Part shown: positions 5,098 to 22,940 of the stretch, in pieces
Layout of the letters: each line of letters starts with the position of its first letter
Position numbering within the stretch: the first letter of the stretch is position 1
Source: Candidatus Saccharibacteria bacterium RIFCSPHIGHO2_12_FULL_49_19
GTDB taxonomy: Bacteria; Patescibacteriota; Saccharimonadia; Saccharimonadales; UBA10212
Direction of reading: 5' to 3'
DNA: 44,126 nucleotides
Assembly: GCA_001788565.1 (NCBI GenBank)
Contig: MGCX01000043.1
Location: 1 to 44,126, forward strand
Made by a program: the position numbers and the translations under genes
The notes under the pieces: generated by a model
What the model was told of the DNA's origin: nothing
Database searches by the model: none
The model's input: only the letters and a program-made list of their open reading frames with translations

Positions 5098-5533
5098 AAC
5101 AGTCGAAACCTTAACAATCTGGTTTAGCAAGCCATTAGACACCTCACCTGAGGTTTCTCATCGCGCGGGCGCGGAATAAATCCGACGCTAGGGCTGCGTT
5201 TCCCGAGAAATCTAGAAGGAACGGTTAGCTCAAGATCAGCTAATTGGCAGTCAGCCGGTGGACTCATAAGGGTAACCACCGTTAAAAAACCTTAGCACCT
5301 TTTCTTTTGTAACACCTCCCAAAACTCCACCTCACTAAAAAGTCTCTCACAAGAACTTTTAAGGAACGAAAAAGCAAGAATCTCTCACCTCGGTGAGACA
5401 AAAACTCGCGCTTCTTCGCTTCCTTTTACTCCGAGTACTGCTCTCGGAGCAAACAAAAACAAAAAACCCCCAAAAACAAAAAGCTGGCTGCTGATTAGGT
5501 GACCTTGACACCAAAACAAACACAAAAACAAAA

Positions 5534-20727: not shown

Positions 20728-21603
20728 CTATATCGCTATCCAGCGGCCGGCTCCCTGTGGCCGGACAGCGCCAGCTAGCTCTAAGTCGGTCAAGGTCGAA
20801 TACAACTCGGCCGCATCAAGCTTCGCGGTGCGAGCTATCTCATCCTGATCAGACACACCCGATAGTATCAGCTCCAAAACAGACCTCTGCAGAGTGCTGA
20901 AGCTCTTACTTTTGGCGACCGATATTTTTTTAGTTGGCTTAATACCCAGTGCCAACAGTACATCGCTAGTGTCGGTAACCGGAACAGCGCCGCTTTTTAT
21001 AAGATTATTGCAGCCCTCCGATCCGGGCTGGTTAATGTTGCCGGGAACGCTCATTACAGTCTTTCCCTGCTCTAGGGCGAACCGGGCGGTGTGCATGGTG
21101 CCGCTATTGGCAGCAGCTTCAGTTATTAACAGTACGTCTGCTAGTCCGCTAACAATCCGATTGCGGGCAATAAAATTCTCTTTATAGACCATGTCTTTAG
21201 CGGAGTACTCGCTGATAAGTGTGCCACCCTTGCTTAGTATCTGATTGGCTAGGTTGAAATGGGAGGCCGGGTATATATTGCTGAGCGCTGTTGGCAGGAC
21301 AGCGATTGTACAGCCTTCAGCTTCCAGGGCTGATTGATGGGCGATTGAGTCAACCCCTAAAGCCAAGCCGCTGATAATTACAACTCCCTGCGCAGCCAGC
21401 TCGTAGCTCAAGCGCTGACTTACAAATCGGCCATAGGCGCTATTTTTTCGGCTGCCGACAATTGCGACCTTTGGCAAAGCGAGCCAATCGACAGGTGATT
21501 TTCCCGCCCAAAAGAACTGCTTAACTGGAGGGTCGGTGTACTTTAAACTATCCGGAAATAAGGGGTCGTTAAGCGAAAGCGTGTTGACATTATTTATAAA
21601 CAT
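20728..21603 (-). CDS. dprA: DNA processing protein DprA
   Basis: VAIVGSRKNSAYG, GLALGVDSIAHQ and a C-terminal winged helix. It lies upstream of topA, a common pairing. Confidence 0.9.
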   Translation of the reverse strand: MFINNVNTLSLNDPLFPDSLKYTDPPVKQFFWAGKSPVDWLALPKVAIVGSRKNSAYGRFVSQRLSYELAAQGVVIISGLALGVDSIAHQSALEAEGCTIAVLPTALSNIYPASHFNLANQILSKGGTLISEYSAKDMVYKENFIARNRIVSGLADVLLITEAAANSGTMHTARFALEQGKTVMSVPGNINQPGSEGCNNLIKSGAVPVTDTSDVLLALGIKPTKKISVAKSKSFSTLQRSVLELILSGVSDQDEIARTAKLDAAELYSTLTDLELAGAVRPQGAGRWIAI

Positions 21604-21612
21604 GTAGCAGCA

Positions 21613-21641
21613 TTGACATTAAGACATTTTTTTGCTAGAAT
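21613..21641 (+). promoter_or_regulatory. near-consensus sigma70 promoter (TTGACA-17 nt-TAGAAT) facing away from dprA
   Basis: -35 at 21613-21618 and -10 at 21636-21641. It sits back-to-back with the dprA start region. Confidence 0.55.
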
Positions 21642-21648
21642 TGCAATT

Positions 21649-22118
21649 CGTAAGTCCAATATATGGATCTTACGCACCTTATACCCCCCATTTCTAACAT
21701 CTTGTTAGATTGTTTAAGAGACTTGGTCAATCGGTTAGTCGTACCCTCCACTAACTATCTGACCCCAGCCTCATTCTTGCCTCTTTGCAGTATAGGCCGA
21801 CTTTAGCCCACTGGCAATTGGTTAAGCTAAAAGAGGTAGAAATGAGGCTGGGTGCTCTTAAACAAACTAACCCCTTTAACTTCCACACCCGTATAAACTT
21901 TCCTAGAAAGTTTATACGGGCAAGTCCCATTCAATGTGGGTGAGCAGGTCCGTCTCACGGCGGACGATCACCTCGGTGATCGACTCGAGCACTCAGCTTA
22001 TTTAGCAGTCTTCGAAGTTTTGCTTTGGTGGGGTTGAAGGGTGTTTCCAGGGCTTGACTATTAAGGCTCAAGCCTCGAAATGAGCTCCATAGGTGCCCAC
22101 CCCCTCTGGAGCTCTTTT
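21649..22118 (+). ncRNA. candidate structured non-coding RNA of unknown family (~470 nt)
   Basis: Runs from the promoter at 21613 to the terminator-like hairpin at 22082-22118. Contains a 22-position helix (21765-21786 with 21830-21851) in which 21 positions pair, two of them G-U pairs that work only on the plus strand. Also has a 10-bp closing helix and a 14-bp perfect hairpin. No ORF of 60 aa or more lies within it. Confidence 0.35.
22082..22118 (+). terminator. terminator-like hairpin
   Basis: GAGCTCCA / TGGAGCTC 8-bp stem followed by TTTT. The 17-nt loop is large for an intrinsic terminator. Confidence 0.4.
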
Positions 22119-22304
22119 CGTATCAAGAATATCAAGTTTTGGCTGAGCCGCGAGCACCGTTTCTAAAAAGTGGGCTGCTAGCAACTATTATTTACTGGAG
22201 CACTGCGCACGATCTTGTTCAAGGCACCTCGGAAGCGCCAAATGTGTTAAAGTCGAACATATTTGGTGACCCGCAAGTGCCGAGAATGAGATTGTATGCA
22301 GGAC

Positions 22305-22940
22305 CTATACCACTGTTCGGGTATCGTGTGGCAGCTGCCCGCCAAAAATATACTCGGTTATTAAAGCCGCTGCTTCACGTAAAATTTTTGGTAAGCTGCC
22401 CTGCTCCTCTTTAGTGAACTTAGCTAAAACAAAGTCAGCGCTGTCTCTGGAGCTGGATTCTGCATTACCGACCCCAATACGTACCCGTCCGAAGTCGTCA
22501 CCCAAATGTTGTATTAACGACTTCACTCCGTTATGTCCGGCGTCGGAACCTCCCGCCCTGGTTCTAATTTGGCCAAACGGTATCGCCAATTCGTCATAAA
22601 CCGCTAGGGTCTGTGGATTATATATTCGATAGAATCGCTGGATTGCTCGGCCAGCCTCACCACTATTGTTCATGTAGGTATCCGGTTTTGCGAGTATCAC
22701 CCTACTCTCTCCCAGATCCTGCATACTTAGGTCGGCCATAAGATCTTTTTTACTAACCCAATTCGGGAAATCGTTGATTTTAGCGAATTCATCAATCACT
22801 TTAAAACCGACGTTATGGCGGGTGTCACGGTATTTGCTCTCAGGGTTTCCCAGTGCGATCACTAAAATGGTTCTACGCGTACCAATGGTATAAGCTGGGG
22901 CGCCAGAAGTAAGTATTGGTCTTTTCTCGAATAATGCCAC
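22305..22940 (-). CDS. pth: peptidyl-tRNA hydrolase
   Basis: ALGNPESKYRDTRHNVGF and GHNGVKS. GTG start with a ~25-aa N-terminal extension. Confidence 0.9.
   Translation of the reverse strand: MALFEKRPILTSGAPAYTIGTRRTILVIALGNPESKYRDTRHNVGFKVIDEFAKINDFPNWVSKKDLMADLSMQDLGESRVILAKPDTYMNNSGEAGRAIQRFYRIYNPQTLAVYDELAIPFGQIRTRAGGSDAGHNGVKSLIQHLGDDFGRVRIGVGNAESSSRDSADFVLAKFTKEEQGSLPKILREAAALITEYIFGGQLPHDTRTVV

Follow-up and report, generated by a model that had tools for sequence, protein, structure and literature searches.

The locus between dprA and pth

The window, i.e., the whole stretch of DNA analyzed here, comprises 44,126 nt of a Saccharibacteria genome (687 kb, 92% complete). Between dprA and pth it contains a gap of about 700 nt (21604-22304) in which no open reading frame exceeds 59 aa, so that an earlier reading made from the letters alone (the sequence-only reading) was right in seeing no credible ORF there. 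That reading had proposed a free-standing noncoding RNA some 470 nt in length, served by a promoter and a terminator of its own, oriented antisense to its neighbors and of unknown family, and every point of it that could be tested agreed with our results. The features of the locus are listed in Table 1. In relatives, an oppositely oriented pth is likewise the downstream neighbor in 84 of 106 loci.

Table 1. Positions of the genes, signals, and structural elements at the dprA-pth locus
Feature	Positions	Strand	Remarks
dprA, divergent upstream neighbor	20728-21603	-	ATG 10 nt from the -35 box of the RNA
Sigma-70 promoter	21613-21641	+	TTGACA, 17-nt spacer, TG-extended TAGAAT; 11/12 matches
Predicted RNA, ~470 nt	21645-22118	+	Inferred ends (5', -10 box; 3', U-tract)
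P1, 5' hairpin	21649-21674	+	CGUAAGUCCA / UGGAUCUUACG; all 6 outer pairs changed on both sides
J1/2, near-invariant single strand	21675-21692	+	CACCUUAUACCCCCC
P2, hairpin	21693-21709	+	UCUAAC / GUUAGA; 99% paired
P3, long-range helix	21710-21865	+	21710-21720 with 21855-21865; closes the 5' domain
P3a, hairpin	21734-21755	+	Loop (U)UACCCUCC(AC), contains CCUCC
P3b, long variable hairpin	21763-21852	+	Absent or short in many relatives
Antisense promoter-like site in P3b	21789-21817	-	TTGCCA-17-TATACT; candidate dprA promoter
Conserved junction between P3 and PX	21866-21871	+	ACUAAC
PX, long-range helix	21872-22041	+	CCCUUUAAC 21872-80 with GUUGAAGGG 22033-41; closes the 3' domain
P4, perfect 14-15-bp hairpin	21888-21920	+	Variable among relatives
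P5, local hairpin	21926-21940	+	CCCA-UUCAAU-GUGGG
P6, four-way junction	21943-22024	+	P6 = AGCAG 21943-47 with UUGCU 22020-24
P6a, enclosed by P6	21948-21965	+	
P6b, enclosed by P6	21966-21981	+	
P6c, enclosed by P6	21982-22019	+	
Sole conserved G-rich strand	22027-22033	+	GGUGGGG (GGGUGGG in most relatives)
P7, hairpin	22047-22077	+	In about two thirds of relatives
P8, intrinsic terminator	22082-22118	+	8-bp stem, 17-nt loop UAGGUGCCCACCCCCUC, then UUUU
pth, downstream neighbor	22305-22940	-	

The plus-strand promoter named in that reading is indeed present, and at the same position a promoter with at least 10 of 12 matches was found in 105 of 106 homologues; TTGACA is retained in 97 of the 106, the 17-nt spacer in 96, and the TG before the -10 box in 103. 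The GAGCTCCA/TGGAGCTC stem followed by TTTT, taken earlier for the end of the RNA, is the terminator hairpin P8. All 8 of its pairs covary, and at least four T residues fall within 8 nt after the stem in 104 of 106 homologues. An automated terminator scan missed P8 solely because its 17-nt loop exceeds the limit of 8 set in the scan. The RNAs of the relatives are about 290 to 520 nt long. What we required of a stand-alone RNA gene, namely a promoter and a terminator framing a conserved structure at the same place in the homologues, is found here, and in the absence of transcript data we regard it as almost certain that the plus strand of 21613-22118 is a real stand-alone gene for a structured RNA.

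Distribution of the RNA

The RNA was found in about 65 of 67 Saccharimonadales genomes, with one copy per genome. Its conserved blocks were detected by blastn, in collinear order, in 58 of 61 genomes of the order to which the source genome belongs; a covariance model of the 5' domain added two of the three blastn-negative genomes, whose other blocks are visible by eye, and also detected the RNA in five of six genomes from further families of the order. A pattern scan of GTDB, with one genome per species, gave at least 120 further loci. Among the matches listed, nearly all are labeled Saccharibacteria, Saccharimonadales, or Saccharimonadia, and almost all carry the 5' domain too. A few contigs labeled Bacillota, Dormiibacterota, or Parcubacteria also carry a typical copy; these are probably misbinned.

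Outside the order, blastn on 160 Patescibacteria gave no homologue, and the 5'-domain model, run on 150 genomes, gave no real match in 143 Patescibacteria; the sole out-of-order match of the model (in genome G104) lies within an ORF of 758 aa and was rejected. As far as searched, the RNA family is confined to Saccharimonadales (Saccharibacteria, TM7).

A two-domain fold supported by covariation

For 21645-22120 the computed fold of the plus strand has an energy of -199 kcal/mol (z = -12.7), which bears out the dense structure noted earlier downstream of the promoter; for the minus strand of the same interval, z was -9.4. The RNA is built of a 5' and a 3' domain. A long-range helix closes each of them, P3 the former and PX the latter, in which P6 lies. 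This fixed core is decorated by the variable hairpins P3b, P4, P6b, and P7.

Most of the helices had been picked out by the sequence-only reading, not always with the right weight. Its two 5' hairpins (21651-21672 and 21693-21709) are P1 and P2, and both are conserved and covarying. The loop of P2 has inserts in some relatives. The 10-bp closing helix (21711-21720 with 21855-21864) is P3, which has 11 to 13 bp and shows compensatory changes in 10 of 11 counted pairs. The loop of P3a is identical in all 60 aligned sequences. The 22-position helix that P3 encloses (21765-21786 with 21830-21851) does pair at 21 of its 22 positions, with two G-U pairs, but it is a lineage-specific insert (P3b) and not part of the core; similarly, the 14-bp hairpin at 21888-21920 is real (P4) but is a variable decoration.

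In the 3' domain, the long-range helix PX was missing from the earlier list; it holds a conserved U-G pair. The local hairpin P5 is replaced in most other families, where CCCCN pairs instead with N'GGGG just 5' of PX. The GATCAC-CTCG-GTGATC hairpin is P6b and is real, though in a variable position. As for the interleaved GTGAG/CTCAC and GTCCG/CGGAC segments (21939-21965), they are present in the window, but the pseudoknot arrangement read from them is not conserved: GUGAG/CUCAC and GUCCG/CGGAC interleave only in the window sequence and a few relatives, and the relatives keep P6 and the P6a hairpin in their place. The loop of P8 reads GGUGCCCACCCCCUC, and the CCCACCC core is the sole portion of it that even the most divergent families retain.

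The sequence-only reading had suggested looking for conservation and covariation in relatives, and both were found, by blastn, by the covariance model, and by pair counting. Taken together, P1, P2, and P3a are paired at 93.7%, against no more than 45% when the partners are slid, and 12 of their 16 pairs show compensatory changes. For P3, PX, and P8 the corresponding values are 95.8%, no more than 61%, and 21 of 28 pairs. None of 500 shuffles reached the observed values in either set. Over the six helices, pairing was thus 94 to 96%, with compensatory changes in 33 of 44 pairs, and the RNA shows the covariation that distinguishes a structured RNA from shuffled and slid controls, as judged by pair counting rather than by R-scape. 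As far as sequence comparison can prove a helix, compensatory variants of four kinds prove PX: UUUAAC/GUUGAA becomes UUUAAG/CUUGAA or UUUAAA/UUUGAA, CCC/GGG becomes GCC/GGC, and UUCAAU/AUUGAA also occurs. All 39 sequences counted have canonical pairs at each of the 5 positions of P6, with variants that include GCGAG/UUCGC, GUGAG/UUCAC, and ACGAG/UUCGU, and one pair of P6c is split between GC (21 sequences) and AU (18 sequences); the counts for P6 and P6c are our own, from a MAFFT alignment. RNAalifold on MAFFT alignments recovered only P2, P3, PX, and P8, and the other helices were set by hand. A scan for tertiary pairs by mutual information found nothing beyond the known helices and register shifts.

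The U-G pair of PX is retained in 108 of 114 sequences, and P3 contains many U-G and G-U cells. Since such pairs would be C-A mismatches on the minus strand, they identify the plus strand, together with the promoter and the terminator, as the RNA strand; the earlier use of G-U pairs as a mark of the plus strand is upheld by those conserved in PX and P3.

Search against known RNA families

A search of the whole window with Rfam 15 at gathering scores returned two tRNAs only, neither of them at 21613-22118. With permissive filters and E ≤ 10, the 4,227 models gave only chance matches of the microRNA hairpin type on 21450-22450, and nine diverse homologues had no match in Rfam at E ≤ 0.5. The Rfam search with all models, proposed earlier as a check, has therefore matched no family, and the statement that the family is unknown stands. 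OLE, raiA, ROOL, GOLLD, and HEARO were rejected as identities, there being no Rfam match to them in the window (E ≤ 10) or in the nine homologues (E ≤ 0.5). The UGCUCUUAAACAA segment in the 3' strand of P3 resembles the rrn boxA; as this strand is base-paired and covarying, we read the likeness as coincidental. We found no description of the dprA-pth RNA in the literature that we searched on Saccharibacteria and on ncRNA discovery, and according to a TM7x transcriptome preprint TM7x has no validated small RNAs. The RNA family is new, in that it matches no catalogued RNA family, and its job is unknown.

C-rich single strands and a possible pseudoknot

Three single strands of the RNA are C-rich and nearly invariant: J1/2 (ACCUUAUACCCCC), the P3a loop (UACCCUCCAC), and the terminator loop (UGCCCACCC). 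Outside the helices there is a single conserved G-rich strand, GGGUGGG, just 5' of PX, and it is a perfect 7-nt complement of the CCCACCC in the P8 loop. The complementarity suggests a pseudoknot within the RNA, which for now is putative. Both sides are nearly invariant and show no covariation, the pairing overlaps P5 in most families, and in one divergent homologue (L179) GCUGGA replaces GGGUGGG without compensation. A pairing of GGUGC in the P8 loop with GCACC in J1/2, where C/U variation fits a G partner, was also considered and was dropped since one family (f26) has GAUGC with J1/2 unchanged.

Possible functions of the RNA

We favor, with a probability of roughly 0.4, the interpretation that the RNA acts in trans as a ribonucleoprotein scaffold, in the manner of the 6S, OLE, or CsrB-type RNAs; no partner has been identified, and the interpretation is an inference from the comparative analysis. 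The long-range helices, the conserved junctions, the wobble pair, and the fixed multi-helix architecture point to a defined three-dimensional fold, which favors a scaffold or RNP, and among the further grounds is the absence of any extended complementary RNA target in the genome. One protein or several would dock on the C-rich loops and conserved junctions that the rigid fold exposes, and a pseudoknot of GGGUGGG with CCCACCC in the terminator loop may lock the 3' domain in place. Proteins are the partners of most of the large conserved RNAs known from bacteria (RNase P, tmRNA, SRP, 6S, OLE, CsrB, Ms1). Like the 6S and CsrB-type RNAs, the dprA-pth RNA is probably abundant, stable, and trans-acting, which is inferred, and it repeats a single-stranded (U/A)ACCCC-like motif in several of its loops; unlike them, it shows neither the 6S rod and its central bubble nor GGA repeats, and it does not match RF00013. 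Nor does it have a conserved adjoining gene that would point to a partner protein, as OLE has in oapA: its neighbors are dprA, pth, topA, and der. A further point against a scaffold is that the C-rich loops, including CCUCC, fit RNA-RNA pairing equally well.

The main rival is a trans base-pairing regulator, whose invariant C-rich loops would act on the G-rich or Shine-Dalgarno-like tracts of a few mRNAs; we consider this possible, though doubtful. C-rich loops of Staphylococcus aureus RNAIII (hairpins 7, 13, and 14) and of RsaE/RoxS pair with mRNA targets. The RNA described here resembles RNAIII (RF00503) and RsaE/RoxS in its size of about 0.5 kb, its own promoter, and its C-rich loops, one of them in the terminator hairpin, and its CCUCC could pair with Shine-Dalgarno sequences. 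This motif, in the P3a loop, is similar to the anti-Shine-Dalgarno sequence, the 3' tail of 16S rRNA in this organism being GGAUUACCUCCUUUCU. Shine-Dalgarno use is rare in the genome, GGAGG occurring upstream of 23 of 528 long ORFs and GAGG upstream of 63, so that an RNA that binds Shine-Dalgarno sequences could be selective. The commonest words directly upstream of start codons are -10 boxes, and many mRNAs of the genome appear, from this feature of their sequences, to be leaderless. One candidate target, hsp20, carries AGGAGG, but the match of the C-rich loop there is limited to the 5-nt core GGAGG, and the base that follows GGAGG in the 23 genes is unbiased (G in 5, T in 5), with no preference for the RNA loop over the 16S tail. 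No complement of at least 10 nt to the C-rich elements exists at any start region of the genome. The sole 10-mer complement is inside a coding sequence of the FtsA/PilM type, and a search for exact and one-mismatch complements of the three elements gave no extended RNA target in the genome, the other matches being on the antisense strand of the gene itself, in a Gly-rich coding stretch, and on the antisense strands of tRNA genes. The RNA also differs from RNAIII in having no homology to it and no embedded peptide gene, and in its long-range helices, which RNAIII lacks, and its order-wide conserved architecture; a conserved architecture of 10 helices exceeds the needs of a seed-bearing sRNA.

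A machine made of RNA only, be it a ribozyme or, like ROOL, GOLLD, OLE, or raiA, a multimer that assembles itself through loop-loop contacts, seems distinctly unlikely to us, even though the extreme conservation of the loops and junctions would suit it. Candidate contacts would be an intermolecular GGGUGGG-CCCACCC pairing, these being perfect 7-nt complements, or the GGUG..CACC self-complementarity in the P8 loop, GGUGCCCACC being partly self-complementary; the proposed contacts show no covariation, and the mutual-information scan gave no extra pairs for them. No known ribozyme-class cleavage-site motif appeared in the Rfam search. With OLE, raiA, ROOL, and GOLLD, the RNA shares a large size, restriction to a lineage, a stand-alone gene, and an unknown role, as well as covarying helices on an invariant core with variable hairpin decorations; it differs from them in having no match to an Rfam model and in its host lineage, Saccharimonadales. 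The raiA motif RNA, too, tends to adjoin a competence gene, comFC.

We give little credence to the proposal that the RNA is mainly a cis-antisense or transcription-interference device for dprA-topA. In 88 of 106 loci a divergent dprA lies upstream, its ATG keeping close to the same distance, about 39 nt, from where the RNA starts; with the dprA start codon so near the -35 box of the RNA, any leader on the dprA transcript would have to run antisense to the RNA gene. Moreover, the promoter-like site within P3b (TTGCCA-17-TATACT) recurs in 14 of 107 homologues, in all of them in P3b. Against this, the RNA gene lacks a sigma-70-like antisense promoter in 86 of the 107 homologues, and the many apparently leaderless genes mean that dprA may need no long leader. 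A cis-antisense device could do without a conserved fold, whereas this RNA has covarying helices and invariant loops. Any antisense effect may be incidental to what the RNA does.

It is very improbable that the RNA is a highly divergent SRP RNA, 6S RNA, RNase P RNA, or tmRNA. The idea is attractive insofar as neither SRP RNA nor 6S RNA was detected anywhere in the source genome. The RNA is like RNase P RNA and tmRNA in its size, its highly conserved housekeeping style, and its pseudoknot-like long-range helices. It lacks, unlike these two, the P4 motifs, a tRNA-like end, and a tag reading frame; the sequence-only reading had found no RNase P P4 motifs, tmRNA end, or SRP motif, and consistently the RNase P, tmRNA, and SRP models all remained unmatched at the locus. 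The genuine genes are elsewhere: RNase P RNA (RF00010/RF00011), which gave no match at the locus at gathering score or E ≤ 10, is encoded on another contig (G000:C28:8959-9383, 222.6 bits), and two tmRNA genes are on contigs C20 and C8 (97 and 93 bits), while at the locus neither Rfam (RF00023 and permuted forms) nor ARAGORN, which found nothing there, gave a match, and the RNA ends in a terminator hairpin. An SRP RNA (RF00169/RF01854) was ruled out since there is no model match, at E ≤ 10, and no protein to receive it. The source genome has no real SRP54-type GTPase, neither Ffh nor FtsY, and no DTAGR or TKxDG GTPase motif in its six frames; none of 41 genomes examined within the order, and none of 151 Patescibacteria, has the Ffh M domain (PF02978). 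RF00169 exceeded its cut-off in none of 41 relatives, a lone sub-threshold match (in genome G038) appearing to be within coding sequence. The loss of SRP in these bacteria has already been published (PMC4508563, PMC8080830). The 6S RNA model (RF00013) likewise scored nothing at E ≤ 10, and with separate 5' and 3' domains the ends of the RNA form no 6S-like end-to-end rod.

Finally, that the stretch is not an RNA gene at all but codes for protein or acts at the DNA level can practically be dismissed in spite of its short ORFs of 31 to 59 aa, as its conserved blocks are split by inserts of arbitrary length, its changes are compensatory in helices rather than placed at third codon positions, its G-U pairs are strand specific, and a promoter and a terminator frame the unit.

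Significance for Saccharibacteria

The Saccharibacteria live as ultrasmall epibionts, and their genomes measure some 0.7 Mb. These small, SRP-less genomes nearly all keep an RNA of 300 to 500 nt with a near-consensus promoter and with loops that are unchanged across the order, and the RNA is probably an important and abundant component of the cell. To our knowledge, large conserved RNAs with unknown function are rare, and such RNAs, once solved, have repeatedly given new biochemistry: HEARO turned out to be a guide RNA and OLE a membrane RNP. With a family model, annotation pipelines could name what is at present an unlabeled gap in hundreds of genomes. Two members of the group, Nanosynbacter lyticus TM7x and Southlakia epibionticum, are now culturable and transformable (PMC10633639), and the function of the RNA is therefore directly testable.

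Beyond the scaffold that we favor, it is conceivable, though rather unlikely, that the RNA is the core of an unknown RNP or ribozyme essential to the Saccharibacteria way of life. One form that this could take is a machine for translation or RNA processing, with the anti-Shine-Dalgarno-like loops engaging the ribosome or mRNAs. If this were true, the RNA would rank with RNase P RNA, tmRNA, and SRP RNA among the housekeeping RNAs and would define its lineage, which has lost SRP and initiates translation mostly without Shine-Dalgarno sequences.

A candidate dprA promoter within the RNA gene

The start codon of dprA, the divergent neighbor of the predicted structured RNA, lies just 10 nt from the -35 box of the RNA (window 21603-21613), and the spacing between dprA and the RNA is almost fixed (~39 nt) across more than 60 genomes. 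The gap is so short that it leaves no space for a conventional dprA promoter. A promoter-like site on the opposite strand of P3b, the variable hairpin of the 5' domain, is a candidate for a dprA promoter set antisense inside the RNA gene (see the table).

Location of the promoter-like site and of the tmRNA genes of the same genome
Feature	Location	Strand	Remarks
Promoter-like TTGCCA-17-TATACT	window 21789-21817	-	within P3b; kept in 14 relatives
tmRNA gene 1	C20:6514-6924	-	97 bits; outside window
tmRNA gene 2	C8:8965-9369	+	93 bits; outside window

Shine-Dalgarno motifs are rare in this genome, GGAGG standing upstream of 23 of the 528 long ORFs, and the most frequent 7-mers 4 to 21 nt upstream of their ATG are -10 boxes (e.g., TATAATT and TATACTT), which together suggest that leaderless mRNAs are widespread.

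Sequence likenesses of the RNA

The rrn boxA sequence is UGCUCUUUAACAA. The 3' strand of P3, the long-range helix closing the 5' domain, is similar to it (UGCUCUUAAACAA, window 21854-21866); since this strand is base-paired and covarying, the likeness is probably coincidental. Another sequence-only reading had placed the 12-mer TCACCTCGGTGA at two window sites, 21966-21981 and 5383-5398. At the former it forms the tip of P6b. Since relatives differ freely in this 3'-domain hairpin, a function common to both sites seems unlikely.

tmRNA and SRP in the genome

The two tmRNA genes, neither of which was detected by ARAGORN, are distinct (~77% identity, with differing tag regions), have unusual T-loops (GCAAUUC and GCAGUAC), and each lie within ~400 nt of a contig end. 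Their presence could mean that the bin mixes two strains, or could mark a site of island integration. Neither SRP-type GTPase motifs nor SRP RNA was found in the genome, and no Ffh M domain was found there or in 151 Patescibacteria genomes; SRP is lacking throughout this phylum sample. Earlier papers already describe this loss in Parcubacteria and in many CPR bacteria (PMC4508563, PMC8080830).

Copies under other taxon labels

Typical copies of the RNA occur at three loci (L109, L107, and L057) on MAG contigs labeled Bacillota, Dormiibacterota, and Parcubacteria. As these contigs are most likely misbinned or mislabeled Saccharibacteria, finding the RNA could help to flag such cases.
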